Source of the DNA: Lingula anatina
Taxonomy: Eukaryota; Animalia; Brachiopoda
DNA length: 64,000 bases
Assembly (NCBI GenBank): GCA_051362555.1
Contig: CM120641.1
Coordinates: 43,096,401 to 43,160,400, forward strand
Reading direction: 5' to 3'
Shown here: positions 3,780 through 35,668 of the stretch, one piece after another
Position numbering within the stretch: position 1 is the first letter of the stretch
Layout of the letters: each line of letters starts with the position of its first letter
Notes under the pieces: model-generated
The model's input: the letters and a program-made list of their open reading frames with translations, nothing else
Databases searched by the model: none
Told to the model about the DNA's origin: nothing
Program-made: the position numbers and the translations under genes

Positions 3780-5119
3780 TTTCCTTACTGACAGCTAAGA
3801 GCTGAAAAGTGCGGTAGCTGTGACTATCGCAAAACTAAAACATTATGACGTTCGCTCTAGGCTGTCACGTTAACCGGTTAATGAACTGACAAAACCACAC
3901 GAAAGGACTTTAGAATACCACATGCACTAGTCTTCCATAATGCAAATTTCAGTCAAAATCGATTAAGTGTTTTTAAACCAAACTGATAAAATCGCTGTTT
4001 ACAGAAACAGAAAAACATACGCCTATACAATGAACTAATAAAAACTGGCGTGTATAGATTTTATTTTAAGAAAATTAATTTAAATTCAGATCCGTGACCA
4101 CCTGCGATGCTTTTTTTTCATTTCCGTAGAGTAGTGAAGCATTTTAAAGTCCTTTTGCTTCGTTTTTATGTTCATTAACCAATGAAAATGACAGCCGAGT
4201 GCGAATACGTTCAGTGCATCACATATTTTCCTGATAAACGGAGTCTGTTGTGGTCTAGTCTTGACATTCATATGTATTAGCGCTAACGACAAAGAATAAT
4301 AAATACCTAATGAGGGTAGCATTCTAACGGATATTTTGAAGTTGTAAATCAGAATGTTATATTGGTATTAATTTCAGTTGTGTTAAAAAAAATAGATTAA
4401 ATCTTTTTAAATGGATATGAAATAAAAAATGGATGATTATAATAAAGCTTTTGATTATGATTAAAACAATACAATGAGAAAACTGGTTGATCGTATTCCT
4501 CGTTTATTCCTTCCCTTTCATCAAAAATATTTTGAACACATTAAGCCTACATGATTGGCCTAATGTTAGGTAGGGTATACACAACAAATTATGGGAATTC
4601 TGCTTAGACCTACTTGTAGTTAAAACGAATTTTTTACAAAACAAATAAGTCGTATTTAATCACATTATATCACAATCAGGCCTTTGATATAATTGAAATA
4701 CGAGCATTTTCTAATAAGATTAGGAATAAATTTCTTTTTTGTCTTTTGTCGCTGTTTTGTATTCGTGCTAGCACTTAATAGGTCTTTAGAAGGTCGCCGC
4801 TAGGTCAAATATGCCGTCATAGCCAGACACCGCGTGACGCACGTATACAGTTTCTCTTAATGCGCAAAAACATAATCCCTTAAAGACGGCATAGCTTATG
4901 TCATATTTGATACATTCAACTGGGATTCAATAAGAATGAGACGTTTATTCAGGAGAATTCTTTAAAGCAAAAAATTTAAGTATTCTCAAGTGAAACGAGG
5001 CTAGTGGAACGTTTATTAAGCGAGGCGTAGGGATATTGTCTGGTTATTATCCGTAAAACAGCCACCAAAAAGCGATGGGGAAGGTACAGGGATAAAAAAG
5101 CAGGTGCCCGTCCAGTAAG

Positions 5120-7682
5120 ATGTCGTCCCTCTTTCTGCTACTAGAGCTGTTTGTTCTAGTTGCCTTGTTAGAAGGAACAGTCGGTAAGCATTAAACCCCA
5201 TATTAACTGTAAAACCAGACGGCATTGCTTACAAGACCCATATCACTGCAAGCGCTTCGAATTTTAAGCTTTAAAATGGCCGAGCTGCAGCTGATTGATT
5301 ATGTTCGCCGTAGTTTGATCTACGCCCAGGCCTTGGTTAGCCTGTCGGCTGCCAAAGCTGTTTTTAAAGGAAATAAACCAATAATAATTTATGTTGTCAA
5401 TATTGTTAACACGGAGTCGACTTGCTAATCTTAAATTATAAGCTCCCAACTCCGAATGCATAAAATGCCTTTGTTAAGATGAAGGTAGAAAATATTAGAC
5501 TAAACATTCTTAGTGTATGACCTGTCCTTATATGAAATCTCTTCTACAGTTTTGGTTGATAATACACAGTGGAATTATAGCATTGCATTGTGACCTAATT
5601 ATTGGTACTAGTAGTAGTTTTGAGAATGTCCCTAAAATAAGTAAGTCAGTGGCCTCACTTTAACTCCCTGAACCACTTTTTTCTACAAACTCATATTTTT
5701 ATGTCTAGATATCCTGCAAAGCACATTTTTTCTCCTACTCAGACCTTTTAAATGTCACTATTTCCATCTGAAATATCAGGAAAACAGTGGTCTAAATAAC
5801 TCGGGAGTCATTTAGAACTAGATTCTAAATATTTTTAATTCAGAAACTGTTAAAAAAATTCAATCGAAGTCAAGCAATGACTCACAAGAAAGAAGAAATT
5901 GCCTTTTTACATTTAGGAAAATTAGACTTGGTACAAAAATCCAAAGTTCAGAGACCAATAGCTAATTGTCTAACCTCACTCCTGATACTCTACAAAATTC
6001 CATGTACAAAATGCTTTAAAGACCTTGGTTTGTTGTACAGCAACAGCTGTGCAGTTTTTACATTTATTATGCAGTGTATATATAAATTATAATGAATAAA
6101 TAATGTGCTGTAAGATTTATCTATTCCTTTGAGAAAAAATATATTATGATACTTTGCCTATGCCCTAATATATGTACATGGAACTTTTATATGGTACTCT
6201 TTGTATAAATAGACAGTTTTTGTTTCCCTGTCAATCAGCATTTAATTGTTTATGTATAATTCATATTGAAAAAAATTTGAAAACCTATATTAGAATATTT
6301 AACATGTTCAGTAAGTAGAGAAAAACAGAATCAAGAAAATGATGATAAAGGCAACACTTACACGAGGCAAATATGTTTCAGGGTTGCTGTGTCATTGCGA
6401 CATGTGTAAGGACACAAACTATACATGTGTCACAGATGGGGTTTGTTATACCTCTGTCCATCTGTCCACAGGTGGAGATATCAAATATCAGTACAGGTAG
6501 GTTGCAGTCAGATTTGTGCTGTTGGGTAATTAGTATGGTGTACTGATAGGGTCATTCCATAGTGAATATTTGTATGAATGAGATTTTTTTTCTCAATCGG
6601 CCTATTTTCAGACTTTTGGGATGGCATTGGTGCTGACTACAGTTATTAGATTTTTCGGGCTATCAGGGAATTTCAAACTTTTTGGGAGTCATTAAGTCTC
6701 ATCCCTGCATTTGAGTCATGTCAGCAATGCACACCATTTGTGTAATATTTGCATTACTTTGACTTCCCCCATTATTTTTGCTGTTTTATTATTATAATGC
6801 CCTCCAATATGGAAAGATATCAATGGTAGTTTAAAAGTGATATTAAACAGCAAATGCAAATATTACACAATTTCAAAATGTGTATCACAGTTTTGTGGAA
6901 TGACCCAAATATGAACCTAGTCTTACCAAGCAATTGAGGTAGAGTGGAAAGGTTAAGACACTATCTGTTTTAAAGTAAAGATTCTACCGTAAAACTGATC
7001 ACAGAAACTGGTCTTAGTTAAGATTGAAGATGGCTTTGTGTTCTAGTCGGCTTCAGTGCATTTCAAAGGATCGCTAAGGTCTCTCCCTTTATTTCTCAGA
7101 TTTTCTCAGAATGTTTGACAGTAGGGCCATTCACACTAGCAATTTTGATCGTGGATAATGCCTGACCGTGTTCCTAACATGGTTGACGTTTCTTTTGAGA
7201 TGTGTGCACCCCTGGGTGGGGTGCAAATAAACCCAGATAAGGACGTGGGTTCTATTGTGGTTAATACTCTAAATCGTGGGCTTATCTGGATGTTGTTCAC
7301 ATTTGGAATGTATGTACACAAATGGGCAATTTTTGCAAATTTTGCATGTTATATACAGAACAGTCACGTGTTGTATTTTTCTGATGGAAATATTTTTTTT
7401 AAATTATGAGTAAATTGAATATTTTTTGCAGCATAACAATCATTACACAACTTGTTCTTCTGCCATATTGTTCATAACATCACTTTTTATTGAGAACAAT
7501 AGTGTGCATGTTAACAGTTGCCCTAGGCAGTCTGAAACGCAAGCAAAGTGGGTTTTAATTGACTACAGTTCTATCGAGGTTTATTGAATCAAGGTAAACT
7601 TGCTAGTGTGAATGGCCCTAATGATTTCTGTTCTCAGTGCTGATATTAGGCCATTAAGATATGTCAACTTACTATATTATAG

Positions 7683-7728
<46 letters not shown>

Positions 7729-10700
7729 CTCATAATAGACCAACATCACAAAGTCAGACTACCCAGTTGACTATCTAAGATAAGCAGTCTTAACAAAGAA
7801 TTTGTTCTCACTGGGAAGACTGGTTTATTGGTGTCATACGGACCCAAGTTTTGCAGTAAAACTGAAATTGATGGGCAGTCTTAACACTGATACAAATTTT
7901 CTTCTGTTTCTGTCATTAAGTAGGAATAAATCTATAATAGTTTTCTCAAATAAAATACTTGTTTAAAATATACTTCAAAGAAGAACATATAAGAGTGAAC
8001 ATTTTTTGACTGGAATACTACTAAACAAACAAAAAGAGGTAATTTATTTGAATTAAAATATATTCTTAATTAATTTTGTGAAACTAGACACCAGGTGACA
8101 ATATTCAAAATACACTAAAAGTTTGTGCATCATAAAACTAAAAGTTTTTTTTTAATTGAAGCCTTGTAATTAGACAAAATTGCTGTAATATATTGGATAG
8201 CTGATAGGTAAAAGTTATTGTTTTCAGATTAAATTTGAAGGAAAATATAGCATACTGAAGCATGAGAGGGAAAATGTAGATGGTTAACAAGGCTATTGCA
8301 TGAGTAGTGCTGGTTTGTTGTGGTTATATATGTTGGCCACTGCAAGATAATGCTGTGTGAGCAATGATGACATGTGAAATATATGGAAAGGGCATGACTT
8401 CCTTGTATTATTTTAAAACCACAGTTTTACAGATTATTTCCTACTCTCCCATTTCTCCAAGCAGTGAAATATGGAAATTAAAATAATCTGTTCATCATTT
8501 TTGTGATTAAGAGGAAAAGAATCATACAAGAAAAACAAAAATGTTATTTAAAATTATATTTCGTTTAACTTCAGTTGAAGTAAATAAAATAACTTTTGAG
8601 TATAGAAGGCAATTTTCTTTTTAATTTTTAATGATACATAATTTTGAATTAGAAAATATTAGATGTGTTGTTGTTATATGGTTACAAAGTTTGCTGTAAA
8701 AAGTCTTTTTAAAGACTTTTTACAAAAAAGTTGGGATCAACTTTCAACTCAAGTTCTCTTGCAGAACTGCCATATATGTCATTTATAAGTTTGTGTCAAC
8801 TTTAAAGCTTAACTGTTTTGTGCACAAAAAATAAATATGACTGTGCACAAATGTCAAATTGCAATATTGTATAATACTGTTACTGACGATTATTGATTGT
8901 TAATTTGAGGGTAATTGTTTTAAGAGCATGATTATTGTTTTGTATGTGATATATATATTCAGCCACAATATTGCAGCATTCATGTTTTTTATGTAAATAC
9001 ATTGTAAAATATATATATATATATATATGTATATTTCTAAAGATGTTTAAGTTCCAAGGAAATTGATCTCCTTCCTTATTCGCTTATTTCCAAGTCTGGA
9101 ATTAGGATTACGCATTTCCCTAACTGCTTCATTTTAGTTTTGCAAGTACCATCATCTTTCAATTGCGAGCATGTTGTTTGGTGGGCCTTACACACAGTAC
9201 CATGTAGTTTGAAACAGGGGTGGGGATGGGACCATAAGGAAAAGTTGATGAAGTTGGAGAATCTTAATAACAGCTTTTCTTATCCAATCTTCTATTTTTT
9301 GTCTCCTCAAGGGCCTGGTCTTTGGTTCAAACATCTTTGATTTTCCCTTTAACATTATGGCTTCCATTTATGTTGCTTTGGGCTGCTTTTTATCTTTTCT
9401 GCATGTAGGTGTTGTATCTAATAAGTATTATGTGTTGTGATCTCACAGTTTGAAGCTCACTTTTGCACAGTCTCACTGGCAGAGGTGTAACCAAAATGAT
9501 GAAGGTGCACCTTTTTACTAAGCACTTTTTCCAGACAAGGTAAATGAAAATCAAACAAAAGTAATCATTTTCCTAACTTGAAAGATGTCAGGATGCATAG
9601 ATTAGACAAATTAAAAGGATATTTTGAAAAACTTTATGCTCTGAAGGAATTTGTAATGAATTCAGTCGAAACCCAAAGTAGTAGAGATTGGAAAATATAA
9701 ATTGGTCATCAGCAGTCTATGAATACATCTGAACTAAGAATAAAACAAAAGTATTCAATGAACTAAAGGGGGGGGTTTGGTTAAGGCAACAGATTTTTAT
9801 TACAACTAAACTTTTTGAAGCAGCCACAGCAGTTTTCATTTTTTTGCACCATGAGGCTTCTTTTGGCTAGTTCATTTTGCTGTTTGGAAACTGCGCCAAA
9901 CACATACAACTTCACAATATTAAAGTGTGGCAAAAGAGAACAGTTTTATCAATTAGAAAATATGTTATGGAAACTGTTGTTTTAGCCTCAGCTTGTACAG
10001 AACAGAAATCATGTTGTTTATGACAGACTGTTTGGGAGTTTAAGAAAGTATTTGAAATGATTGTGACATGGACCATAAAAGCATCCATCTTGACAAATAA
10101 GGACTATTTTATTAGTACCTACAATACACACATGAAATACAGTAGAAATGGAAGATGTCCTTTTAGCCAAAAGAAATCTTTCAATAACAGCTTGGTTTTT
10201 TCTTCACCACTTTCTTTTTAACACAGCCGATTATTTTTTCTTGTTATCACTTACCTTCTCAAGGGGACAACTCTTACCTAACAATTAAAAAACAGTCTTA
10301 GAATAGGGTCATTCTCACTAGCAAGTAAACTGCAGTCCAGTTAACTCCAAAGAAATTGCGGTCAAATAAACCCACTATATTTGCACATTAATACCAGCAG
10401 CAAAAGCTTTTCACCAATCTTACTTCCTATTAAGCATGCACACTAGTGTTTCATTAAAAAGTAATAAAGCAACATGGCAGGAGTTTGAGTAGCCATGGTT
10501 GTTATGCTGCACAAAATATTTAATTTACCCGTGTCAAGAAATATTTCCAACTGAAAATGTGCATTAAAATTGTGCGCAGCAAGGAAGAAAGGCAGATTGC
10601 TGTTGTTAGTACTGTAAGAAATCCCCTAGAAATCTGATAAACTGCCCAGCTGTGTGCATGCCTTCAAAATTTAAATATTCGATCTCGACTTCAATGTAGC

Positions 10701-13700
10701 GTTAACTGCGATAGAACCCTAGTCATGGGTACGTAGTCTATCCACTGTAGAAAAGTTCATCCTGAAAGGACTGCGACTCAACCTCAGTTGACATTGCCAG
10801 TGTGAATGGCCCTTTATACATAACCCATTCAAACTTTATTTTGGCCCCATTCTGAGTACTAACTGATCCGCCGACTAAAAAGAGATGCTGCTGATTCTCG
10901 ATGGTCTCCCCCCTCCACGTGCCGTCGCTGCAGGGGCCTAGCAATTAAACCTCGTAGCCGAGATTTAATCCGTTTAATGGCGCGAGTGGAGGCAGGGAGA
11001 CCATCCGGAATCAACGGCATCTCTTTTTAAGTGGGGTCGGCCAGATTTAGTCAACAGATCAGTTAGTGCTCAGATCATCTATTCTGAATGGGGCCTATGA
11101 AAAGGACCAGTGGTCTTCATTTAAGTGGACCACTTTTGAATTGTCTTGAGCCAAACAAGACCTTTTTATTTTAATCTTAAAGTGAAAACCAACTTTTGAC
11201 CCAAGTTGTTTTGTGAAACTGACCCGTGTCCACCCTCCCCTCTGTTCTCTAGAGTAGTAGGGTGACATCTTGCTTCTGTGTGTGTTCTCCCAACCCCTAC
11301 TAACAATGCATTGTTAAACACAGGTATTGTTGCCCACCAATACCTCTGTCTTCATGTATATATATAATCCTCATATTAAACCATGGCAAACTGTGTATGC
11401 TACATTGCAGTGGCTGTGGCCGCTTTACTTGGCACTTGTATTGACAGATCATGGTACTCGCATGCCCAGGTATTGACTACATCCGTAGCTCTGTTATGTC
11501 CTGTGAAACTCGTCCTTTTTACTACTGCTAACCTCGGGGGCACTTACTGGCAGCCATTACAGTTCTACAGATAGTGAAAGATAGTTGCTCAGTATCTTTG
11601 TGAGGGCAAGGGGTGTTTCATTGGGAATTGGTTATATCTATTTTTTATGAAAAAATAAACGTGAGTGAGTATTTAGTTATGATAAAAAGGCAATCTTCTG
11701 GGTGTTAAAGATTTTGAAAAATCTGAATTGTTCCCCTAAAAAACAACAACAACAAAAAATGCTGCTCTGAAAGAATAAAACTGAATAATCCAATGTTCTC
11801 TTCATTTGCTAGATGCGACAAGAGTATTCTCCCGAAGGTCCCACTTAACTGTGCACCAGTCCCAGACAACAAGGATGTATTTAATGCTCAGTGTTGCAGT
11901 ACCCATGATCTGTGCAATGAACATCTGACCCCAACCTTGGCTCCACAAATTCAGCAGCCAGGTATGAAAAATGGCTGACACAGGTCTCCTGACCCCCAGA
12001 CTCCCTTCTGGCTTAAAAATTCAGATTTTCTCCACTAGGTGAACCTGACTTGTTAAAAAAAGTTTGGGGAAAACGTCTGTGTTTTTCATATTGATGGGCT
12101 AATACAAAAAAATTTCAACTGATATTGTAGCTTGCCATCTAGAAAAAACTTGAATGTTTACCTGCCATATTGTACGTAAATCTTGCCAGCCAAGCTGAAA
12201 AAAGTCTTGGTCGTGGCAGGCAGGCAGGCCATTGGTGCTTTTAACCCTGCTTCTGTCCTTGAAGTCACCTCTTTCAGGCTTTTGCTTTGTTTAGTTCAGC
12301 CATGATCGTAGTGCAGAATTAACAGAAGGGCCCCTGGGGTCCAGGAGACCATTGTGCACAGGGAAGGGGGGGGGGGGCAGGCAGGAAAGACATTAAGGGA
12401 AAACCAAAATGTTCTTGGACCACAGATCAGGTTACATGTTGTCATATGAGGATATAATATTCAAAAATATTGACCCTGATTCAAGATGGGGTTAGGGGGC
12501 TAATGTATGGACAGCATAATTTTTGCTGAGTGAAAAAGTGTGATATCCCAAAATGCTGTTTGAAATATTATATAAAGATGATTAAAAACGGTTGTTACGT
12601 TAGTTTTGGTTTATGGTTTTATATCTGGTTCTAAAGCCCTGTGGTGCTGTCTCCCTGGATGTAAGGATACGTACACCATAACTGTGGCCAATTTGCATTT
12701 GATTTTCCCTTGAGAAGTTTTTCCAGTGTTCAGTATCTGGAAAATTAAACAAGTGATTTAGACAAAATATTCTTTTATTCCATAACTAGCTGTTACGAAA
12801 AGAAAATGCTTCTGCCACTAGGCAAGCCCATGGTGTGTGAAAATAATGATCAAATCTTAGACAAGAGCGTCATACGATGTTGTAATGAGTCGGATAGGTG
12901 CAATTTGCGAATGGCTCCAACGTTGCAACCCACTTCACCGATGCCAGGTATGATTTAAATTTTATAGAACATGTTAAAAACTATGATAAAGAACTGGCCT
13001 CATCCTTATACCAGGAGTGAAAACAAAGATATTAGCTCAAATTATCAGTCTTTAAACAAAACCGTTTTTGAAATACAGTAAGGCTGAACCTACCTCTTGA
13101 CTACTCTGCAGTTGTGAACTCCATTTTAAAGTAATTTAAGCTGTGTTGGTTTAATGAAACAAGTATATTAATTATTAAACATGATTGAATCTCATATTCT
13201 CAGTATTTACTACTGCTGATAGAAACGGAGGTCATATTTGCCAGTTTTTGCCCCACATGAATGGAGTGAGGCCAGTTTAAGGTTCCATATATCTTAAATG
13301 TTAGTTCAAGATTAAACCCCACCAGTGCCCAGGTAGAAAAGATGATAAGACTCCAGGTAGGTATGTAGTCATACAGCTGTGTTGTGTGTAATTCTGCTTG
13401 ATAGGCAACATGGTGATATACATGTGTTGCAGGCGAGATTGAAATCCAAGCAGATTTGAAGACTACATAACTGAGATTGAAAATTGCAAACTCATCTAGG
13501 TGGGTTAAAAATCTGCCTAAGTCGGATTGGAATTTCATTTCTGCCTGTATTTCAATCTTGCCTGTAATATATACCCCTATTGCATCCATTATATCTCTCT
13601 GAACAGCTATAACAGGTATGAAAAAATAATGAAAGGACCAGTATAAGTTATGTTTTTAAAAAATTGCAACTTTGCTTCCAAGAAAACGGGGGTGGGTGGT

Positions 13701-16700
13701 GGATGGGAGGCTTTAAATTATTTACAATTTCATTCTTTATAAGACCTTCATCTTTTTATTTATATATATATCCCTTGTTGCTTAATCTAGGCAGTAGCTC
13801 AGTCTTGTAAAGATTCTGTGCCAAAATTAATTAAAATTTATGTGGCATTTGTAACAGCTGTTGTTCACTGTATGTCAAGTAAGAAAAAGGTGAGTTTGGA
13901 CTAGACTTCATAAATTCAATGCTTTAACACTGTTCAAAACATTAAAAAACTATTAATTCATTGTCAGATGTGCTATTTTTGAAGTAGAAATCTGTATTAT
14001 GAAGGATCTTCAATATTGGACCAAACATTTATTTCTATGCATATTTTTGTTTCCACTTGTTCATAATTTATTTTAATAAAATGAATATCTTGGAAGAATT
14101 TTGACAGAATTTCTATACATATAAAAATTTAGTTGAGAATTGTTGTGTAGGAACTGACTATACAGTTGCATTTAATTTATTTAATACAGACCAGTGCAAA
14201 TAATTAATGTTTTGAAGTGCTTTAAATTTTAGCATATATGTGGCTGTATATTTGTCATGTTTGCTGTCTAATTGTAGACGCTGGCAAAGATCCTGATAGC
14301 TTCAGCTCGGTGGAGTTGGTGGTAGTGATAGCAGGACCAGTATGCTTTGTCTGTGTGTGCCTTATGATCACACTGTTAATCTGCAACCGCCGCCACCCAA
14401 ACTGTATGAGGTACCAGCAGCCAGAGCCCGAGATGGAAACAATGCTGCCCCCTGGTGACCAGTTGTCAATCAAAGAATTGCTGGATGACTGGACACACTC
14501 TGGGTCAGGATCAGGTAAGTTCACTAGATTTTTCAAAAATTAAAGTCAAACAGGTGGAGATCTAAAAGCTTATCCAGCATTTAAACTGCGGTAATGACTC
14601 AGTTTTTTCTTTGGAAATAATGAATTATCTACAAGTATATAATTTTGGAATTATTAAAACGGTATTTCTTTGTAGCATTTGTGGTGTTTTAGCTGTATAG
14701 AATACAACTATAAGGTAGCCTGCTTTCCATTTGTTGCAAACAATAAGTATGAATTTTCTGAATTTAAGAATTTATGACTTTAAAAAATATTGTTTCTGAA
14801 AAATTTACAATTTTCTCCATTAAAAAAAATAGTCATTAAAAATTTTGTGTAAGGCCCTTTTCTCATCAAGCGGTAGTTTTAATAGCTAGGACTGGTCTGC
14901 TTTGAGAGATCCATACATTTAATGACACGACAAGCATTCTCCGCACGTTGGCTTTTTAGTCTAGTCAATTAATGGGCCGTGCCGAGTGAGGCGCCTCTCT
15001 TACATAATAACCAGGTGATTGAGTTGTCTATCTTTCAAGGTGATCTGGTCCATGTTAGTGTACAGCATGATATGAAATGGACCTAATATACATGTAATGC
15101 AATCAAATTAGAATATGCTCAACATGTGGCTCAAGTATACTATCTCACATCTCACAATTTAGAGTGAGATATTGCTTCCACAGGAAATGCAATTCTGCGG
15201 TTTTCAGGAAAAAAATACAGCTCTGATAATTTAGGCATATTCCTGTCGGATCCTCTCTAAGACCTGGTTAAGTCCTGGGATTCCATACAGACACATTGAT
15301 AGTTTAGCAGACACATGAATGAACTGTGCATTAGTCTGTCTAAGGGGTTAGATAAGTGCTCTCAGTGCAAAACTTTTGGTGGGTGAATAATAGAAATACC
15401 TTTAATTGTTTCATAATGGAATATCATTTTTACCATTCGCAATTGTTAGAAGGTAATTTGAGATGTAATGCAAAAGTTAATTACCTTATGCAGAATTTTG
15501 AAGCTTTGGTGTTGCTCTAAAGCCATTAATAGTGCTGAGGAAAGCTTTAGGGCAACATAAGTGGTTGAATGATGAAAAATGATATGTTGGTGTATGCACT
15601 GAGCAATGGATTTGTCCATAGCGTTGTCGTATTTTTGTTTTACTTCAAAATCACCGATTCATAATGGCTTCACTTAAAGAGTCATCATGTTTGCTTGATT
15701 TTCACGAAAGTTATTTGCACATTTCATTCTTTATCAGTCCTGTTGTCCAGTGTTTTCTTCAACCCAGTATTGTATTTTTGAATTAACTCTGACAAGCTTG
15801 ACGTTAGTTTGTATGTCTGGTGACAGTATTATGTAATATTATATAAAAAGTTCTTTCTTTCTTTTTTTATTTATTATTCATTGCCAGGTTTAATGCCAAG
15901 TTTACATTACACCTCAAATTACCTTTTTGACTATTCTGAATTTTCAAAAATGAAACTTCATTGTTAAATAAAACATGTTATTTACACATACAGGTGAAAC
16001 CTTTTTGTGAATGTTTAAATATTATATACATGCTGCCCCTTTTCATGTTGGCAAATGTGTGAATGGGTTAAGCAGATGTGCTAATGTGCTAACAATATGA
16101 ATCAAACAACCAACTTATGAAACACCTTGTAGCTTATGGGTAGATGATGGTTTGAAATGAATTGGGATATTATGAAGATCTCACTTTCATAATACATTCA
16201 CTTCAGATGGACAGAATTTGAACCTCAAAGTTCATAGCATGACCACGGTTTCAAAATGTTGCTTTTGGGAGAATTCGCTTTTTGTCTACTGTTTTTCACA
16301 ACCTGCTGCCCAAGTTACGTAAATGCCTTTTTTATTTGAGGTCCCATTTTCTTGTTGGGCGATTTCCTGTTGTTCAGTACATGGTAAACAGTTGATAAAC
16401 ACAGTTTTATAACTATGGTATTAGCAACCTTGACCTTGGTATTTGGAAAAAATAACCAGCCAATAAAACATTCCCCTAAATAGCAACTAAACCACATGGC
16501 ACAAAAGAATTGATCATAGTGCTCTTTATGACCTCAGAAGTATTAGATTACTCGCAATTTTGACTCTGCTCCTTCTTAGTGTATCAAGAGGAAATGAGGC
16601 ACTTCAATGGAAGTCTCTGGTATGGCGAATACTTAGAAAAGCAAATCTAAAATATATCAGAAGAAGCAAATATTAATATTTCATAAAGATATTGCCATCT

Positions 16701-19156
16701 ATTATGTACCAGTAGTGGTCCTTTAGACATATATAGACAGATGCAGGTACAGGTTAAAGAAAATTGAAATGAAAAAATACCTTTTGTATTCTTTAGAGAT
16801 CAGATCATTTTCAGTGCACTTTTGAAAGTTTTTAATGGTCTGAAGTTTGAAGGTCAAAGTAGAACTCAAACAACAAGGTTGCTATTTGAACATAGTTTTA
16901 AGGCTTAGGTAGGACAATATGTACGCTTACTGGGGAAATAAAGTGAAAGAATAAACAAGAAAAGGTGTATCTGTAAATGTTCAAGTTGATACAGTTACTA
17001 AAATGACTAGCAAACAATTCATAACAGATAATTAAACATTAAAACATCATTCATAGACCTTATTTCACCTAAATATTCCACATAGCATTTTTAGGAGTCA
17101 TTTTTTTTTGTTTTGTTTTGTTTAGTTTTGAGGTTTTTCATGTTACCAGGACAACTGTCAGTACAATATTAAAGACATTGTGTAGTTACAAAAGAGCATT
17201 GCTACTGGTATCAAAAATATTTTCTGGAATACAATGTGTGGTAGACCTTCACATGGTGAAAATTATTTTTCTTGGAAATCCTACAATTCTTTTCTTAATC
17301 ACCAATGTATATCCTGTCAAAAACTTGTAAAAAGCACTAAAGTGAAGTTTTTATGACTGAATATTACTTAAACATGCTTAAAAAATATGAGATACTGCAA
17401 ACTTGAATTCCTTTTGGCTCAAGTTGGAAATAAGACTTTTGTTATGAAAATGGATTTTATTGTCACACATTGAAAGTAAAATATTTTGTGATTTTTGTTT
17501 CCAGGTTTACCTCTTCTAGTCCAAAGAACCATAGCACGACAAATCACCTTACAAGAGATTATTGGCAAAGGACGGTTTGGAGAGGTCTGGCGGGGTCGAT
17601 GGGGAGGAGAAAATGTGGCAGTGAAGATATTTTCCTCAAGAGATGAACGCTCTTGGTTTAGAGAAGCAGAAATTTACCAGACAGTGATGTTGAGGCATGA
17701 AAACATTCTGGGTTTTATAGCAGCTGATAATAAAGGTATTGGAAACATTTGAACACGTCCTTCAAGTGTCATTTCGGAACTAATGAAGATGTACATGTAC
17801 ATCTTCAAATTGACACATTCTTAATTTATTTATTTTGTAATTATTTATAAATCAATTATTCTTAAAATTATCATTATAAACAATATTTTTTATCATTTCT
17901 CAGATAACGGCACGTGGACTCAGCTCTGGCTTGTGACAGACTACCATGAGAATGGTTCATTATTTGACTATCTAAACAGGACAGTAGTTGATTCCACAGG
18001 CATGATCAGATTGTCATCTTCTATTGCCAGTGGCCTCTCACATTTACACATGGAGATTGTGGGAACACAAGGTGAGAAGTCTATCATAATGAAAAATAGG
18101 GGAAGGTAGTTGGAACTATTTTATAGGTGATTATTATACTTGTAATTATGAAGGTAGTAAGTGAACAGATATTTTCTGTGATTGTTCCTTCATGTTTTCT
18201 CACCCAGAACTGGCTTTTAGAATAAATAACACACCTGATCATGAAGTAGTAATCAATGTTTGCAGGTGGTAATATATGTGTGGTGTACATAACTTGCAGT
18301 TGAATTAAGCCTAAAGCCAAGGTTATGAACCTCTTGTAGTGAGACATTAGTTTCAAAGTGCCATGATGTGTGGCGGATATAGACATTTTTTTTTTCTCTT
18401 GTAAAATTACATCCTCTTTTTTCCTTTACAGGGAAACCTGCCATTGCTCACAGAGATCTCAAAAGCAAAAATATTTTGGTGAAAAGAAATGCCACATGTT
18501 GTATAGCAGATTTAGGTAAACTATTTCACCGTTGTCTTGGTTATGTCTAAGACCCCATTCCCAGAGATTAGATCGATCTACTTTAGATCGACCTAACTCC
18601 CTGGGGGTTCACGCTAAATAGCTGTCAGCAGAGCAGACACGAAAGTTAATTACCCCCTTACAGCTTGTAGTAGGCGGGACAGACATTTATCTGACAGTAA
18701 TCTGGTGAGACTCCCCGCGGGGATAGATCGATCTAAAAGCTCTGGGAATACAGCCTAATAAGTGGAATTATTTTGATCAAAGTTTATTGTAGTAAGCTAT
18801 AAATTGCACTAGTGTCAGACATTTGAATGTGGATAACATATAACTGTTTCAACCCTGGCTGTAAATTTTTTTTTCCACTCAGCTGTGACATAAGAGCACA
18901 TGGCATGCAACATGCAATAGCGTTGTTCTTGTCTGCCATCCTTATAGTGGAGGGTTGAAAGGAGGAAATATATGGCAGTGCAATAAATTAATGGGTGACT
19001 TAGTGGGGCAAAAATACTTTTAAGATTTCAGCTGAAATAAGCTAATGTATTTGAACTGATTTTTGAGACAGATTTTGTTGGGCATGGGCACTGTTGTTAG
19101 CAATTCCATGCCTGACTTAATGAAGTGGGTTTGTGGAGGTTTGTGCAAAGATTGTC

Positions 19157-19222
<66 letters not shown>

Positions 19223-20627
19223 GTTGACTTATATATACTCTAAGTTATCATTGTTTCCTTGTCAGAAGCTTTTTAACATTTTGAAAGAGAAATAAAAGAA
19301 AGTTTATGACAAGGCCTACCTTTTTTCAAAAAATTATCTGATGGTTTTAAAAATTTTTCGTATCACTTTACTTCATTTAACTTGGAGCACTTTATACATT
19401 AGAATAATAGAAACATAAGTGAAAGATTTTATATAAGTTTTTATATTAAAGGAGCTATTCTCTTTTATTTAAATGGTTAATTACTGCCATGTGTAAACTA
19501 GATTGATGATAATTTAGACAACAAAGAAGGACTTATTTAAATTTTTCCAAGCCAAATTAGCATATATTAAGATTTGGGTAAAAACAAATTACTGTGCTGG
19601 AGTAAGCCCATAGGCAGGTTATACAAAAAACACACACACGCACGCACGCACGCACGCACGGATTAACCCTGAAATCGTCAAGAGGAGAGTGGAATGTGAG
19701 AAAAATATTCAAGATTCAGAATGTTATATTTAGATGTAGATTTATGAGACTGTTAACTTTCTAAGTTTTTCCATCAGTGTGAATTAAGTTATTTTTATCC
19801 AGTGCTTTTCAAGTTTGACCTTCACACTGTAAGCGATCATTGTCTGCTTCCAGGTCTTGCTGTGCGCCATGATTCTGCCACAGACACAGTGGATATAGCT
19901 CCCAACAATAGGGTGGGCACTAAGCGTTACATGGCACCAGAGGTACTGGATGAGACTCTCAACATGAATCACTTTGAATCATTCAAGCGAGCAGATGTCT
20001 ACTCCCTTGGGTTGGTGCTGTGGGAAATAGCTAGGAGATGCTCTGTTGGAGGTAAAAGGGTTTGTCTGTTATTTGTTCTGGCATTGTTGAAGTATAGTTT
20101 TTATTGTTAAGGAGACTTTTGATTTATTATTATTATTTTGTAGTAATGGGAATCATCCAAGTTAGTTCTAGAGTAAGTCTCTCAACGTAGTTTGAAATAA
20201 AGTGAGTTTTTTGCAGGGTTTTTTAGGAGAGTGGGGCCAGAAATAATGGCAGACTAGTGAGTGCCAATAAATGCTGACAGAATTATACGCAGAATTATAC
20301 TCGGATGTTTTCTCTTCAGTTCTGTTGAATTGCACCTTTTTCCACAACAGTATGGATTCATCATAATTCACGTATTACTTTTATGTTGATATTCTTAGCC
20401 TTATTATGTGTCAGTCTTACAGGTAAAAGATAGCTGATTGCATGTTTTTGAGTTTTGTATGTCAGGTAGTGTGGACAGCCTTATTTTAGGCTCAGATGAT
20501 TTCTACAGCCATGGGTTCTTCGATGGCACTGAAATGCAATCCACTCAGTAATTATGGAGAAAGAAATGACATGTGAAACTCTACAGAAGATAAACATGAA
20601 AGTTTTGCTTTTTTCAGACCCTTGCTT

Positions 20628-20678
<51 letters not shown>

Positions 20679-21400
20679 TCTTGTTATACGATTGTACATG
20701 TGTTATTCTTCTTCTTTGTCTTTCAGCTTTGTCCCTTCTTAACCTAGATGTGTTATTTCTCCTATTCATCAAGTATTTAGATGTTATATCAACTACAATG
20801 TTGTGACATTATCTTAAATTTCAGGTATATATGAAGAATATCAGCTGCCATATTATGACTTGGTGCCCTCTGATCCCACTTTGGATGAGATGAGGAAAGG
20901 CATTTGTGAGAACAGGAACAGACCAGGCATACCCAACAGGTGGCATGGGAATGAGGTCAGTGGATCATATGTGCTGAAGAAAATTGAACAACCTTTGCTG
21001 AATATTGAACAACCTGTTTGGTGTTTGTTGAATTAGATTTTTTCTATGAATGTGCTGTATAATTCTATTACATTTCTAGTCAGGGGATGAAAGTTTTGGG
21101 TGTTTTCACTTAAAAAGAGAATGGTTGTTGCTGGGGGGAGGGGGGGTGCACAAGGTTATTGAAAATTAACTCACACCAGATTTTTTATGTACTGAAAAGA
21201 ATTTTTCATTAATTTATTTAACTTTGAGAGTAAGTAATGATACAAATTTATACAATTTCTAGGCTCTGCGTGTAATTTCAAAAGTTATGAAGGAATGTTG
21301 GTATCACAATCCTGCAGCCAGATTGACAGCACTGCGTATTAAGAAAACTTTGGCTAGTCTAGCAGGACAAGAGGACTTGAAACTGAGGTGTACATACTGA
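5120..21400 (+). CDS. TGFBR1: TGF-beta/activin type I receptor Ser/Thr kinase, ALK4/5/7 (Baboon/TGFBR1) class; 10 coding exons per isoform, ~504 aa (exon 3A) or ~507 aa (exon 3B)
   Basis: Exons, all GT-AG with continuous phases: 5120-5183 (signal peptide [21 protein letters not shown]); 6382-6496 ([25 protein letters not shown], cf. ALK5 CFCHLC..NFTCVTDGLC); 11813-11961 or 12790-12947 (CC-x5-CN Cys box); 14278-14514 ([16 protein letters not shown] plus GS box SGSGSG); 17505-17735 ([25 protein letters not shown]); 17904-18071 (L45 loop [15 protein letters not shown], the Smad2/3-type signature); 18432-18515 ([11 protein letters not shown]); 19854-20051 (GTKRYMAPE); 20825-20955; 21263-21400 ([15 protein letters not shown]). 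Confidence 0.95.
7124..7618. mobile_element. PIF/Harbinger-like MITE
   Basis: TIR gggccattcacactagcaa / ttgctagtgtgaatggccc with TA-containing flanks. Confidence 0.75.
7683..7726. repeat. (GT)n(GA)n microsatellite
   Basis: Directly visible. Confidence 0.9.
10306..10812. mobile_element. Second, diverged copy of the 7124-7618 MITE in opposite orientation
   Basis: TIR gggtcattctcactagcaa / ttgccagtgtgaatggccc; its left interior matches the reverse complement of the right interior of 7124-7618. Confidence 0.7.
10843..11095. mobile_element. Fold-back (palindromic) MITE
   Basis: ggccccatt..ctgagtactaactgatc..aaaaagagatgc..gatggtctccc is mirrored by gggagaccatc..gcatctcttttt..gatcagttagtgctcag..aatggggcc. 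Confidence 0.75.
11813..11961 (+). CDS. TGFBR1: Receptor ectodomain alternative exon 3A (Cys box)
   Basis: tttgctAG|a TGC GAC...CCA G|GTATGA; encodes [49 protein letters not shown]; 149 nt, phase 2 in, phase 1 out. Confidence 0.9.
12790..12947 (+). CDS. TGFBR1: Receptor ectodomain alternative exon 3B (Cys box), absent from the ORF track
   Basis: ttttattccataactAG|c TGT TAC...CCA G|GTATGA; encodes [52 protein letters not shown]; 158 nt, same phases and same five-Cys pattern as exon 3A, no stop codon. Confidence 0.88.
18551..18755. mobile_element. ~210-bp PIF/Harbinger-like MITE in a receptor intron
   Basis: TAA TSD on both sides; tagatcgatcta subterminal palindromes; four further copies at 59061, 59279, 59533 and 61423. 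Confidence 0.85.
19157..19220. repeat. (AT)n(AG)n microsatellite
   Basis: Directly visible. Confidence 0.9.
20628..20678. repeat. (TAG)n microsatellite
   Basis: Directly visible; source of the poly-Tyr ORF on the minus strand. Confidence 0.9.
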
Positions 21401-27770: not shown

Positions 27771-30700
27771 ATGGCTGTTACACAGGTAAGATATCTGTGT
27801 TTTTTACTAATTTTTCAGATATCAGGTAGCAATGTTTAGTACTTGTAGATGTTAAATAAGGTGTCGTTGTTACGCGAGATAGATGTTAACTGTTATAATC
27901 AGCTTAGTACTCGTTTCGTTTGGATTTAGATAAATGTAAACAATCGACTCGTCTAATACCTCTGCGATTGGCACGCATTGGGTTGCATTGATTAGAAGGA
28001 ACTTAAGCATGTCAGGGATGTATGAGCGAAAATCTGGCATTCTCAATATAAGAATATGAAGATAATTCCCAGTTCTTGAGTTTGAATTTATGCCTCCTGG
28101 ACTTTGTAATACTAAAATTACAGGGTTGAGATTTATCCATGTTCACACTGATAGACATGACACGGCCTCAAATGATCAATATGGCTTAAGATTTTAGTAA
28201 TCTTATCGCCGTTGTAATAAGTCATGACAAGTTTACTTAAACCTCTGACTGAGCAGATTTAAAACTGAATCAATTATTAACATTGCCTTCTCACCACATA
28301 TAATTCAGGCAACACAGAATATAATAATGGTTTAATATTTCAAAATTCTCATAACTGAAAAAAATGAAATATAAAAAAGAAAGGCGTACACAACCATTAA
28401 TAATATTGTCCCGCTTTAATGTTTGACCGCGTATACATGTGCCGCAGTTGCCATGAAAACGTAGACACAAACTGTGGCGGCCTCCTGCAGTATTCCGTGA
28501 GAGAACACTTTTAAGTAGCAAAATAAATTGCTGCGGCGTGTATTGTGTTCCTTAGTCACTGCTAAGAGAGGCGTGATAGGGTGACAACACAGAACACACT
28601 GGATACAGGCTCTGATATCGTAAGTCAAAGTTATAATATGACACCAATTTCACCTTTGTATTTAGCTTCTGTTTCTTTTTTTTTCTTTTTTCTTGTTCGA
28701 AGCATTTAACGATACATCTTGTGTTGTCTGTTTGACTGACAACCTGTCAATAATTCTGCGGGACAAAACGTGAGGGTAGGTTTAGGTAACACTCTTACGG
28801 CTACTCAGGTTTAGTCCATCTACATCAAGTTAGTCACAGCTACACAAATAATTGTGCCCAGACTTTCTTGACGAATTCTTGGGAGGTCCAAACTATTAAA
28901 GCAAGGTCCTTATACCCAAAGGAGGACCCTACTGACCCTTGTAAGGCTCTGTCGTCCATGGAGGGCCTGCTGCTCTCAGGGAGAACTCTGCTGTGCCCGG
29001 GAAGTAACTACTGTTTCCATTCGAAGGTCCCTACTTCCCTGGGGTGACGATCTTCGGAGGACCTGTTTCCTTTGGGGGGGGGGGGGGGGGACCTTAGAGC
29101 TCCCGAGAGTACCCAGCTGTCCTCGACAGGAGAGTTGAATAACAGAAGTACGTACTACTGTAATTGGGAATTAGGTGTATATCAATTTTTCATTCCAGCC
29201 ACGCTTCACCCCAGCCACACCATGGCGGACGGTGAAAGATCCGGTCATGGAGGAGACCGACCTGCACCGCGCCATCACCGACGGCTCTGGGAAATCCTTG
29301 TCGCAGGCCCTTAGGATTATCGAGCGCATGTCTAAAGACGAACTACTTCTCAAAAGTCAGGAAGACACTGGGACGTTCCTTCACCTCCTGGTGTCCAATA
29401 GCGAGTTGTTCTGGTCTAAGAACGCCAGCGTTATGCCCGCCGTCCCCATTATCTATAAGTTGGCGCTGTCTGGACTGGACGTGAACGCCCGGAATATCCA
29501 TGGGAATACAGCCCTCCATATAGCCTGCTTCAAACCACATGCTGAGGCGTTTATTGAACACCTGATACGAATAGGTAAACACCTAGCCCCCCCTTCTCCC
29601 TCCCCCCCTCTCTCTCTCTGCCACGTGCGTTAAAATTTTTTTATAATGTTTCTAATCAATTGAAAAATAATTTTCTCATCAGTTGAAGTAATCACGCATA
29701 TATTGAAAAAATGCATGGCCCCGTTTTTTATCGTCTCAGGTTTAGATCCTTGCCTCAGTAACAGGAAAGGCTGCAAAGTCATTCACTCTTACAGTCATCG
29801 TTTATGCCAGATCATTAAGGGACAGCCGGCAGCCAAGTCTGGGTTCTGGAGTGCAGGTAGGAATACAAAGTTCATAAATGATTTCATACCCGTTCCAGAC
29901 GCTCCAGTACCGTTCGAAACTTACATTGTAGGTTCAAATGCCAAAGGAGTCATGTATTGTATTACCTTATGCCTTAATGGTTCATCAAGCACAACTGAGA
30001 GATAATAAAGTCAATTAGTTTCAAAATCACGCACGCAAGGAACAACAAAAAAGGCTATCGGGTTCAACCTAAATGTGAATGTGGTTTGTAGCTCGAGCAA
30101 TTATTCCAGCAGCTTGACGTATGAATGAGATGCTAAAAGCGCAAACGCACAATATCGTTTACTGAAAAATCAATTAACACCACATAAAAAACCATGGCAA
30201 CCAGTGGTAAAGTGTGTATGGCAACAAAAACTGGCGATAACACTCATGTTTCACCAACAGCCGTATTCCGTATAAGCTTTGAAAATACACTCTTTGAGCA
30301 AAATTAAGCTTATTCCAATTATTTTGTTATCAAAATTCCAATTGCAATTCCAATCGTTGACTCTTAATTGTCAGTGACTCCTCTTGAATTTCTTGCGCTA
30401 AAAATAATTGTTATTTTATTTGAAACCTTTCCGTTTTCTGTCCATTTCATCTAGTTGACTGTGAAGATCTGGTCCTGGCTGAGAAATACCTCAAAATGTG
30501 GTGTCGGGTGAAGGTGAAGCGGGCCACGAAGACGCTGAAAGACGTGTGCGAGGACACAGGTAGCACGGAAATGATGAATCTCCTGAACAAATACGAGCTG
30601 ATGAATGAGATGGTCTGTGCAGCAATGGCAGGAGACACCAATAAAGTCAGCGCCATGCTACAAGATGCAGGTAGGTAAAACTGCCACTGTAAACTACTTG

Positions 30701-33700
30701 CATGTTATCACATCGTGATGAAACAGAAGAGATTTAATTTCAGAATTTGTTCGAAAAAGATTTTCGTTATTGAAGATTTAATGCTGGATACGATAAAATT
30801 ATGTACATAACGGAATCTGAGACTTCGTACTAACATACGCTCTCTTTTGAATTTTTTCAAACTTAAATTAAAAATATGAATTAAAGTGTGTCCGTAAGTG
30901 AGTGTGTGTGCGCGCGTGCGCACACACACACACATATTAATGTGTGTGTTTATATACTCCAGGCAGAGCCATTGACCTTAACACCAAAGACCACTCCTTC
31001 GAAGTCCCCAAGCCTCTGGTCATCTCACTGCAAGAAATCGGTCAAATGATAGAACCAGTGATTACAATACTGCTGAACAATGGCTTTAACAATGGCAGTG
31101 ATTATGCAGGTAACAAAATTTCATTTTAAAGAAAATGGATGGGGTATGCAGATTCATAAGACTGGGATATACAGAATCTTTGATATCATTTAAGTTAAAA
31201 AAAACCAAAGGGTTTAATCGGAAGTAAACATAAAATATACAATTTGAGAACAAAACAGTTAAGATTCATAGGGTGCGGCGTCCAAATTCAGCATATTAAA
31301 GGAACCAAATTATTGCTTTCTAGTCGCACTCTGATCTACATAACTTAATAATCACTATTTCATTGCTATATTTGATTTGTTTGCTTCAAGTTGTGACGTA
31401 TATTCCATCACTGTATTGTGCTTTTGTTGCATTTGTCTAACCATTTTTTTCTTTTTGTCTCCAGATCAACTGGAGCGGTATAAAACCTCGTTCGAAGAAT
31501 CTCAGCTGTTCGCAAAACTGGAGGAGAGCACAGTTGACTCCTATCTGGAGGCAATCCAGCTTCTCCAGTTGGACACCAGCTCTCTGGACCTGAAGTTGAG
31601 AAGTCACAAGGAGAACACCAAGGGGTGGACCTATCTTCACTACGTGTGCCATCTGTACAAAAACGCTACCAATATTATTCTGAAAAGACTTTTGATCAGA
31701 ATCATTTACAATCTCGCACTGGCTGGCATTGACGTGAACATACGAGATTCCTCTGGGGAGTCTGCGCTGATTAAGGCGTTTGAAGAGGAAGACCAAACCC
31801 TATTATTTCATATATTAAGAATAGGTAATTACAAACATGATCATTGTATGTTTTATTTCTAATATTTTACCTATTCTGATGTTTTGGTTAATTAACTGAG
31901 TTCAAAAACTGACCTGCCATTTCGCATTGCAATACAAATATACCTTAATAACAATATTAAAAACGACTATAGAGTTAATTATCTTTTTTTACTTATTAGT
32001 GTTGGCAGTTTTAAAATAAGCATATACTTTTCCAGCCACTGTGTATAAATGTGTTTCAGATATTTATGACACTTTAATCGAAAAGCTTATGGTAACTCAG
32101 CAATGGGTTTTCAGGAGTTGATAGTGTAAGTTATTCCAAAAGCTAAACCAACCTCTGAAACTTCACTTTCATATTGATGTGCATGGAGATTGAAGCTGTC
32201 CATTATTCACCAATTTGTTACAGGTGTTGACCCCTCTATAGCCACCCCTGACCACCGGGCAGTGGCCATAACAAATTATAAGTACAAGGGTAAATTTGTT
32301 CTGACAGGGAGTTACAGGCGGGTGGATCAACCGGGTCTCTGGGTTGCAGGTAAGGCGCAACCGGGGGGGGGGGGGGGGGGTCACTTACAGTGTGTAGAGA
32401 AGTATTTTCAAATTATATAATTCATCTCACTCAAGCTTAGTTGAGATTTGATAAAGAAAATGTAAAATATTATACTTTCTTTCGTATTTATATGGCTGAT
32501 ATAATCCAGACGTTTGGCTAAATAGAATTTTATTCTTTAAATTTTACAGTCGAGGATCAGGACTTGGAGAGAACGCGATGTTGGGCGGATTCATGGGCGC
32601 GTGTGAACGTGAAGAAGAATGACCGCAGTTTAAAGCATGTTGCCTTGGCGTTAGAGAACAGACAATTGGTCAGTTTACTGGAAGAGAGCGAGCACACCAT
32701 GGAGTTTGTCTGTGCCGTATTTGCGTGTCACCTGGAAAGGATGAAGAAGCTTTTGGCTTTGGGTAGAGGTGAGAGTGAAACTGATCACGTGACATGTGGT
32801 GCTGAATTTTATATTTTAGATTATTTAGGTAATCAAGTTGTTAAAATTGATCTTATCAGAAATTTGTAAATGGGACTTTCTTCCCACGCCCTAACCTTTT
32901 TTCAAGGAAATGAGTTGCTGTATCTAATTTCTGAACCATAATTCAAATATGCCCTGTATATTTCTGTTCAATAAAAATATGCCAGTTATCTAATACAACA
33001 TATCACGTTTGGTTAACGTATGGAATTCAAGCAGTTCTAAACATTACATTATCTTTTACCCCAGGGAAATGTCTTGTTAACCCAATCGACCCGTATTACA
33101 TCGCTGGGTTTAAGACCGACTATAGTGTAGAGTACGTACAGAGACCTCTGATCATTCCCGCTTTGGAGATCTGTACACCAGAAGTGATAGACTTCCTAAT
33201 ACAGTTTGGAGCTGATCTGGGGAAACACTATGAGGGTACTTTTATTTCTATTTTGTTTAATATTGTTCATAATTGATCAAATTGTCGTTTAATCATTTCT
33301 TTAATCTATTTGTGACAGCTGTAGAGTGGATATATACTGCCACAGTGTCTCGCAAAATACATTCAATTTTTAATCCTACCTTATATTGCTGTTTTAAAAA
33401 TCAGGTGACAAATACATCCCAAATAATCTAGCTAAATGTTTTTGCTTGAAACAAAATGATATATGATTCCAGCAACCGCCCCCTGTGGACCTGCGGCATT
33501 TTGGGCATTTAGAGACGACATTGACAGTCGTAACACCCTGGTTGTGGCACAGCGGGCAGACGTCACACATCTGAGAGACGAGCGAGGAGCCACCATGTTG
33601 CATCTGGCCGTGAAGCGGAAGAACAAACATCTCAAAGAAGAAATCGTCCGCGTTCTTCTTGAGCGGGACATAAACATTGCTGCCCGTGACATCGATGGCC

Positions 33701-35668
33701 TGACAGCAAGGGACTATTTAGAGAAATATGAGGTAGAAAACGCCGAATCCCTGAGAAGCATCATTGATGAGTTTGTGATATATTTTGTTACTGACGATCA
33801 GATTGAGAAAGTAGAGCAGCTAATCCTGGAGGGGTACGACCATATACTAGATATCCAAGGAGTAACGAAGAAAGGAAGAAGAATGCACACAAGGGAACTG
33901 GCCGAAATGAAGCAGTTGAAAGACATGATAAAACTACTAGATGAAATCCCTGAGTACGAGGTGTGTTTTATTAAATAAAGATATTTTACGAGGTGGAGAA
34001 CATATTTACGTGGTATATCAAAACGATTGTAGTTCCGTTTGGCCATAAGTCTCCGTAAAATTTGTAACGGTTTTTGTTTTGGTTTCGAAGAATTTTTAGC
34101 ATGCATACCGTGACGAGTCACAGTCAAAGCATTACAGATATGATTTGACATAAAAAAAGCCATCACCATTAAAATCAAAGATAAAGTAACCTTATCTAAT
34201 GGCAATGTATTTATATCGTCAGCGAGAAATCAAAGTGATGCACTCAGCTATTGAAAACGCCGACATCAAGACTATTTCCAAGAAAGCTCAAGAAAAAAGG
34301 ATAGCATGGGGTAAGTTTGAACTATTTTAATACCCAGATTTTACCAACATGGGTATATCTCGTTCGTCGTTTTCCTTTCCTCGATTTTTTGTTATAACTA
34401 ACCAGATGAACCAATGATCTTGATAGTAGGTCATTGCACGAACTGAATAATACTTTATCAAATAAATCAAGGTACCAATAGACATTAACACAAGAATCTG
34501 GTTGCTGTAGACACGATATCAAAATTCACCTCCTAGTATAACATATATGATGGTTGCAGGGACAGACAGGGGCGGTAGGTCACTAATGCATAAAGCCATT
34601 GTATACGAACAACCGAACGTTGTGGATTTCCTGTCACAGCAGTTTCCAAACATGGTTTACATGAAGGATAACGTGAGTTTTTTTATCAGTCTTTGTCACT
34701 TTACAGGGGGAATAATAACAATTGCTTGAAATGCGAAGTTAAATTAGATTTTTTTCATCATTTTTTAAAGGTGAATTTAATTTTTAGTTAATGGAAAGTC
34801 ATGGCAATTGCATTTCTAAATGTAAGAAGCACAGTGTCGATTTAAATATCTATTTGTCGGAGAAAAAGAACTTCACCAACTTAGATAATTTTTTTTTTGG
34901 TCATCATTTTTTAAAAGATATAATCAATTAAAAAATTTGGACAGAGATATTAAATTAATATTTGTTTCAGCTACTACGCACGCCCCTCCACTATTGTGCT
35001 AGCCTAAAAGACAAGAAGAAAACCTACGGCAAGATTTGGTCCATCCTCAGTCCTGCCGGAGGACACAACAATCTAGAAGCCGTTAGTGTCCAACTCTGTT
35101 GTCCTTGTTTTCTCGTTCAAATCTAATTTATTTCTGCCGTCTCTCTGCGAATATTTATAGTACAGAAGAAACTGTGGTCTTCAAAGTCTATGCTAAACTC
35201 TTTCAAAAATTGCATAATAGCGAAGACCAAATCTCAATATTTCGAGTTCTTTGAAAACAGTGATATGTATCTGATTGCTTCAGCTGACTATTTTGACAAT
35301 CGGTTTGAACTGAATACTGACTGTACTTTTTCTTTTCCAGAACAACCTGACAGTTCATGATTACCTTCGAGAAATGGAAAAGGAAACCCCAAAGAAAGAA
35401 AAGCCAAGAGGAAGGCAATTTTATGACTACAAGGTACTATCAACTGATTTGTCTTGTAAACGTTTCGTTTTATCATACAATATTTCGTCAAAGCATTATG
35501 TAGTGTGGGGCTACACAGAGTAGCATGTTTATGTTTTTGAGTATATTTGATAACAATGAAACGTATTGAATATTGTTTCAGGTTCGGGATTTAGTCCAAG
35601 TTGAAAGACAAAGACAGTACTTTGACATGACCACCCTCACGCAAAGTCAAGAACAGGTAGTTTCATAA
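27771..35668 (+). CDS. Uncharacterised ankyrin-repeat protein (~905 aa) with an internally duplicated module; 3' end uncertain
   Basis: Phase-consistent GT-AG exons: 27771-27785, 29199-29574, 29740-29856, 30455-30670, 30963-31109, 31465-31824, 32224-32349, 32550-32768, 33065-33235, 33473-33960, 34223-34310, 34560-34672, 34971-35081, 35341-35433, 35582-35656 (or read through to TAA at 35668). Ankyrin motifs: DVNARNIHGNTALHIA, GWTYLHY, DERGATMLHLAV, DRGGRSLMHKAI, RTPLHYCA. Confidence 0.85.

Follow-up and report, generated by a model that had tools for sequence, protein, structure and literature searches.

The window analysed here, a stretch of 64,000 nucleotides from the brachiopod Lingula anatina, carries an ALK4/5/7 receptor gene that spans positions 5120-21400 on the forward strand and supplies ten exons to each mRNA. 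Exon 1 (coding part 5120-5183) encodes the signal peptide, matches the RefSeq protein XP_013382711.1 and is joined to exon 2 by 62 reads in three of four runs. Exon 2 (6382-6496), common to both isoforms, encodes strands 1-4 and the Cys1-4 region, which make up the N-terminal half of the ligand-binding domain; it matches Pfam PF01064 (E 5.9e-5) and is spliced to either of two mutually exclusive exons, 3A (11813-11961) and 3B (12790-12947). Exon 3A was established from spliced reads and translation, and 3B from spliced reads and the RefSeq match. The domain scan, junction reads and translation place the transmembrane helix and the start of the GS box in exon 4 (14278-14514), and the end of the GS box with the kinase N-lobe in exon 5 (17505-17735). 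The remainder of the kinase is encoded by exon 6 (17904-18071), exon 7 (18432-18515), exon 8 (19854-20051) and exon 9 (20825-20955), followed by exon 10, whose coding part (21263-21400) runs up to the stop codon; these five exons were assigned by translation match. The path through exons 1-2-3B-4 to 10 yields a product of 507 aa that equals XP_013382711.1 (P0001; TGF-beta receptor type-1, Lingula anatina) letter for letter, while the path through 3A yields 504 aa. Both isoforms retain all ten ectodomain cysteines, including those of the Cys box, and PF01064 also matches 3B and 3A (the latter at E 0.019, which alone is below the cut-off). Among PDB entries the GS box and kinase are nearest to TGFBR1 (616 bits, compared with 517 for BMPR1B and 493 for ACVR1). 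The L45 loop, which sets Smad choice, spans exons 5-6, and its 13 residues are the same as in the mammalian TGFBR1 (ALK5) record P0047. Judged by sequence, the receptor is an ALK4/5/7 (TGFBR1-clade) type I receptor with a Smad2/3-type L45 loop, and the original prediction was therefore right to see an ALK4/5/7 receptor in what it called a non-insect-looking animal.

Exons 3A (149 nt) and 3B (158 nt) are each flanked by AG..GT and share the donor CCAG/GTATGA. Exons 1 and 2 together contribute 179 nt, so that exon 3 is entered in phase 2 and left in phase 1. Because the lengths of 3A and 3B are each 2 mod 3, using both or neither breaks the frame: on translation, inclusion of both leads to a stop at 12819 (119 aa) and omission of both to a stop at 14294 (65 aa). 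This bears out the earlier claims that two tandem exons lie at these positions, with these lengths, phases, donor and peptides, and that exactly one of them must be used. A profile of 67 exon-3 peptides, run against all six frames of the window, found only the 3A and 3B sites (E 8e-18 and 7e-13; next best 0.25), and no third copy of the exon was found in the window by this profile or among the junctions at 5050-17800. The two exons have just 13 aligned identities, and since the residues that they have in common are only those of a near-universal scaffold, the exons must be old.

The original prediction had also pointed out that 3B is not among the open reading frames. It is indeed absent from the list of open reading frames at 70 aa, but it is present in the RefSeq protein, and it is 3A that is hidden: the sequence cluster of XP_013382711.1 has one member, and a homologue search with 3A brought up two candidates of which neither scored, although the query is short, the evidence is weak and newer annotation lay outside the scope of the search. 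Compared with 1.84 billion representatives, 3A gave three matches, two of them repetitive and spurious and one a real tandem-exon record. Another candidate, a lone atlas match at 0.84, was rejected as uninformative. The gene model of Lingula is thereby corrected, and the isoform that is commoner in the runs analysed here is the one for which we found no protein record.

Nine raw-read RNA runs were available by species label; eight were used (X6 was left out), with 6-30% of each run read. In X3, X5, X8 and X9, where joints were collected at 5050-17800, exon 2 was joined to 3A in 0, 20, 16 and 14 reads (50 in all) and to 3B in 0, 10, 3 and 6 (19), and exon 4 was joined to 3A in 0, 10, 7 and 7 reads (24) and to 3B in 0, 5, 8 and 3 (16). 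In X1, X4, X7 and X2, where the region was 11700-14600, there were 0, 4, 9 and 0 reads from 3A to exon 4 (13) and 1, 0, 11 and 0 from 3B to exon 4 (12); loose ends with the terminal sequence of exon 2 occurred at 3A in X4 (12) and X7 (14), 26 in total, and at 3B in X4 (4) and X7 (4), eight in total. Every joint in X5, X8 and X9 is of the GT..AG type with borders as predicted, and all four junctions proposed earlier as a check (6496>11813, 6496>12790, 11961>14278 and 12947>14278) are present in RNA reads. At the listing threshold of three reads from two starts per run, below which rarer both/neither forms would be missed, no joint of exon 2 to exon 4 is listed in X3, X5, X8 and X9 and none of 3A to 3B in the eight runs. 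Use of both exons is seen in five of the eight runs; X3 has no reads on the exons, and X1 and X2 are shallow. The claim that one gene makes two receptors is thus borne out, because the RNA shows mutually exclusive use of the exons within an ALK4/5/7 gene.

Over those five runs 3A is about twice as common as 3B (113 versus 54 reads, in which mates were possibly counted twice). The share of 3A lies between 0.61 and 0.80 and does not differ between the runs (chi-square p 0.67), which carry no tissue labels; a share so alike across five unlabelled runs lends no support to tissue-specific regulation. Run X7 lists six differences from the window at third positions of exon 4 but no variant in 3A or 3B (Poisson P ~4e-4), a pattern that gives only a hint of constraint on the pair, being weak, from one run and set beside a variant list for X3, X5, X8 and X9 that leaves out 95 rows. 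Two X9 reads join positions ~11648-11663, ~150 nt upstream, to the 3A acceptor and possibly reflect a rare cryptic donor or an upstream exon. At 14240-14275, ~10 X4 reads match over 36 nt and continue into unrelated sequence in both directions; they probably derive from another transcript.

How the exclusion is brought about can be narrowed down to some extent. Steric exclusion is subject to a length threshold, and the intron between 3A and 3B, at 828 nt, is too long for this mechanism, which is ruled out. Nor is a U2/U12 clash evident, because every splice site is GT-AG. Owing to the frameshift, mis-spliced transcripts with both exons or neither are likely targets of nonsense-mediated decay and would be removed by it; exclusion at the level of splicing and exclusion by decay are indistinguishable in these reads. 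Long-range duplexes between the flanking introns, of the kind expected from docking/selector pairing, were barely above shuffles (0, 1 and 1 of 12). The 3A-3B intron does contain a GC-rich inverted repeat on the forward strand (11983-12350; arms 11983-12010 and 12323-12350) that starts ~20 nt past the 3A donor. Its stem has an energy of -46.5 kcal/mol, compared with -27.6 ± 3.0 kcal/mol for shuffles (0/20 as low), in a region chosen after the repeat was seen, and a 451-nt fold around the stem gives a z of -1.2. No other copy of the repeat was found in the window, and the stem may be a splicing element or a transposon remnant.

The part of the protein that is exchanged coincides with the loop to which ligand choice has been traced in vertebrates. 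In a structure model of XP_013382711.1 (the 3B form), built from a 59-row alignment, the ectodomain has a pLDDT of 85-95 over residues 21-100, with strands at 23-26, 36-39, 42-49, 55-62 and 86-91. Exon 3 comprises codons 60-112; set against the modelled strands, it begins within the last part of strand 4, takes in the complete β4β5 loop and strand 5, and extends through the Cys box and stalk. According to the accessible part of PMC8718839, ALK4 and ALK5 contact their ligands mainly through the β4β5 loop, in which a cis-proline and a phenylalanine knob occur together with an extension of five residues missing from BMP receptors; Pro77, Gly79, Lys80 and Phe82 of ALK4 are key, the proline being important for ligand binding. 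The same source reports that the ALK5 loop put into ALK4 confers TGF-β1 signalling, and that single-region swaps alter specificity without a full exchange between ALK4 and ALK5. The Lingula ectodomain aligns to that of ALK5 (E 7e-11), and 3B does so gap-free over the first half of the loop. With its canonical 14 residues, the 3B loop has Pro, Gly and Lys spaced as are Pro77, Gly79 and Lys80 of ALK4, and Met at the knob. The 3A loop departs from this pattern: between Cys5 and Cys6 it has 11 residues, the fewest among 67 exon-3 peptides, 61 of which have 14, and it has no proline at Cys6-7, where 58 of the 67 have one, while its knob residue, Leu, is hydrophobic. PDB matches of 3A to BMPR1A/1B only were also considered as a sign of BMP-type binding, a candidate that was rejected since they are not significant (E 0.04-1) and lie in the Cys box and stalk.

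We consider it probable that the choice of one exon out of two produces two ALK4/5/7 receptors, both full-length, that have one kinase in common but differ in the β4β5 loop and likely also in their preferences among activin-class ligands. The difference in preference is likely by analogy with Drosophila Babo and with the ALK4/5 chimeras, the swapped part being the specificity loop. Its loop length and proline suggest that B is the conventional form and A the deviant one. Given the Pro, Gly and Lys at ALK4 contact positions, isoform B would act as a conventional activin/myostatin-type receptor, while isoform A, whose loop is shorter by three residues and has its proline displaced, would recognise another set of ligands or bind the same set more or less strongly. 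Smad2/3 would transmit the signal from either isoform. Potential ligands are available, in that the peer-review file of PMC13121700, in its accessible part, gives the ligand genes of L. anatina as two activin/inhibin genes, myostatin and Gdf15.

The odd loop of 3A could equally mean weak binding or none. On that basis isoform A might instead be a tuning or decoy form whose binding is weak, dependent on a co-receptor or absent, and which dampens or reshapes the signal. Its loop is the shortest of the 67 and is without the proline found in 58 of them, and diverged duplicate domains serve as inhibitory modules in zebrafish Tgfbr2a (PMC13187141, accessible text). We nevertheless regard a decoy as rather unlikely, as isoform A retains all cysteines and a hydrophobic knob residue, has its kinase intact and predominates in the reads; moreover, three caenogastropod receptors are also without the proline in the only loop recorded for them, so that a receptor may function without it. 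More improbable still is that the loops are functionally interchangeable, with the pair retained for dosage or splicing control or with 3A as a drifting relic. The constant 3A:3B ratio across runs, a RefSeq model with 3B only and the nine of 20 animal groups that show no swap (see below) would all fit with interchangeable loops, but the exons are old and yet frame, splice sites and cysteines are intact in both, X7 lists no variants in either and the swap recurs across phyla. Two receptors differing in ligand preference thus remain our preferred reading.

A comparison with other animals indicates that the Lingula case is not a lone oddity, and that the same swap apparently sits uncommented among the database isoforms of several phyla. 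When residues 20-215 served as query there were 490 matches; 20 clusters and 20 taxon groups were compared among the 120 matches listed. Within these, a half-domain swap starting at the fifth cysteine occurs in 10 of the 20 groups: the nemertean Lineus, the bivalves Mercenaria, Ruditapes and Pinctada (where the pair in Pinctada is an mRNA versus a gene model), horseshoe crabs and a scorpion cluster among chelicerates, and the insects Chrysoperla, Ischnura, Periplaneta/termite and Psylliodes, the exon borders in these species being deduced from protein alone. The X1/X2 records of Lineus longissimus, Mercenaria, Ruditapes, Limulus and Tachypleus resemble the Lingula pair closely, in that they are the same until the fifth cysteine, differ over ~50 residues and are then the same again; unlike the Lingula pair they come from automatic annotation only, whereas Lingula 3A has no record that we could find and an unusually short loop. 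Gene models of Gryllus (labelled 'Raf homolog' by its source) and Timema, together with another record, read through two tandem copies (P0036, P0113, P0117 and P0181). The conserved proline is missing from exactly one copy in all five lophotrochozoan pairs and from no arthropod row. Nine groups showed no swap (Liolophura, Ptychodera, Oppia, Lamellibrachia/Ridgeia, Patella, Haliotis, caenogastropods, a bivalve-like cluster and Schistocerca), a weak negative because isoforms below 90% identity sit in other clusters. Babylonia and Nucella are each represented by a pair of TGFBR1-like records (P0095/P0107 and P0102/P0150), and because these differ throughout they are probably gene duplicates and not splice forms. 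The three caenogastropod loops scored are all without the conserved proline.

Amphioxus presents a variant of the same device. TGFBR1-like isoforms from three species (P0164/P0126, P0017/P0125, P0163/P0123 and P0162) likewise pair one gene and a single kinase with two alternative ectodomains, but the whole ligand-binding domain (~85 residues) is exchanged, as opposed to the second half in Lingula, and one old gene model has both domains in tandem. This whole-domain swap is most simply taken as independent.

The history of the half-domain pair is harder to read, since the exon trees rest on 47 columns with unsettled bootstraps, whether all 67 rows are used or 34 (33 left out). On balance, we lean towards a history in which several lineages duplicated this exon independently, or in which ancient copies were homogenised within lineages. 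Both clam copies have a Cys box shortened by one residue, as well as neighbouring residues, in common, which points to separate duplication or homogenisation there, and a bivalve clade is acceptable to the AU test (p 0.378). In amphioxus the duplicated unit is the whole domain, and the copies group together in the 34-row tree (89/88) though not in the 67-row tree. Duplication of domain exons is moreover documented 12 times in vertebrate receptors (PMC13187141, accessible text). What this reading has to accommodate is the grouping of Lingula 3A with Lineus X2 (97/79 with 67 rows, 96/88 with 34) and the cost of 14 log-likelihood units incurred when 3A is constrained with 3B. These observations would be natural under a single duplication that dates from the base of Lophotrochozoa or Protostomia, or from earlier still, with the Babo exon-4 cluster as a homologue and with losses afterwards, for example in gastropods. 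Such an origin, to which we give a little short of even prospects, would also account for the single cysteine position at which the swap starts throughout the 10 groups, for the one proline-less copy in each of the five lophotrochozoan pairs, and for the record that reads through two tandem copies, the first of them the same as an Ixodes record. Against it, 3A and Lineus X2 are both long branches in the same short and unsettled trees, and the pairwise lead of Lineus X2 is slim (103 versus 101, 99 and 98). The AU test rejects neither 3A with 3B (p 0.105) nor the Lineus pair (p 0.071), and the cross-phylum deviant clade (p 0.181) and a chelicerate clade (p 0.25) likewise stand. Finally, the shared intron makes the same exon a natural unit of repeated duplication. 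Repeated duplication or homogenisation therefore remains the reading that we favour, and the exon pair poses a clean question of ancient homology versus repeated duplication.

The best-known precedent is Drosophila baboon, where Babo-A, -B and -C arise from mutually exclusive fourth exons and show tissue bias, with a presumed preference for Myo, Actβ and Daw (PMC7371420 and PMC11195991, accessible parts). As in Lingula, an activin-branch type I receptor there has mutually exclusive exons and isoforms that differ only in the ligand-binding domain, and in isoform records from four other insect groups the swap occurs at the same cysteine. The fly has three such exons, whereas Lingula has two, and the comparison, which covered insects other than Drosophila, assigns 3A and 3B to none of a, b and c. 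Vertebrate ALK4, ALK5 and ALK7 have the same fold and use the β4β5 loop as specificity site (PMC8718839, in part), but are separate genes where Lingula has splice forms. Tandem multi-LBD receptors (ACVR1, BMPR2 and TGFBR2; PMC13187141, in part) also have duplicated ectodomain exons within the TGF-β receptor family; in these, whole-domain copies occur together in one protein, while the half-domain copies of Lingula cannot combine in frame.

The usual view gives invertebrates a single type I receptor of the activin branch, which serves several ligands, and treats the Babo splice forms as peculiar to flies. In the literature covered, descriptions of the switch were confined to Drosophila; this coverage did not extend to subscription journals, with the original Babo papers and lophotrochozoan TGF-β reviews among them, and earlier remarks on other arthropods or molluscs may exist. 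The accessible text of PMC13187141 does not mention babo or amphioxus, that of PMC3863949 has nothing on babo isoforms and that of PMC7522025 nothing on receptor isoforms, while the accessible main text of PMC13121700 does not mention isoforms, splicing or ALK4; the literature search also returned no report of alternative splicing of the amphioxus ALK4 ectodomain. The device itself is thus known from Babo and present in automatic annotations, and no description seems to exist of its breadth, of the deviant loop in 3A or of the variant in amphioxus. A broader proposal, which we put forward as possible though doubtful, is that splice-switching of the ALK4/5/7 loop is a general invertebrate answer to many ligands. 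It would comprise a half-domain pair as old as the protostomes and ancestral to Babo exon 4, a proline-less class of lophotrochozoan exons (in brachiopods and ribbon worms) that reads another ligand, and an independent whole-domain version in amphioxus, all before the split of vertebrate ALK4, ALK5 and ALK7. Natural pairs of swapped loops on an identical backbone provide a test of how type I receptors choose their ligands.

Two further features of the window may be recorded. Upstream of 3A, positions 10850-11100 hold a palindromic interspersed repeat, MITE-like in character, to which hundreds of reads from other loci align at 90-95% with loose ends. Downstream of the receptor, a multi-exon ankyrin-repeat gene lies at ~29175-34730 on the forward strand, with Pfam ankyrin families recognised in three of the seven open reading frames scanned.
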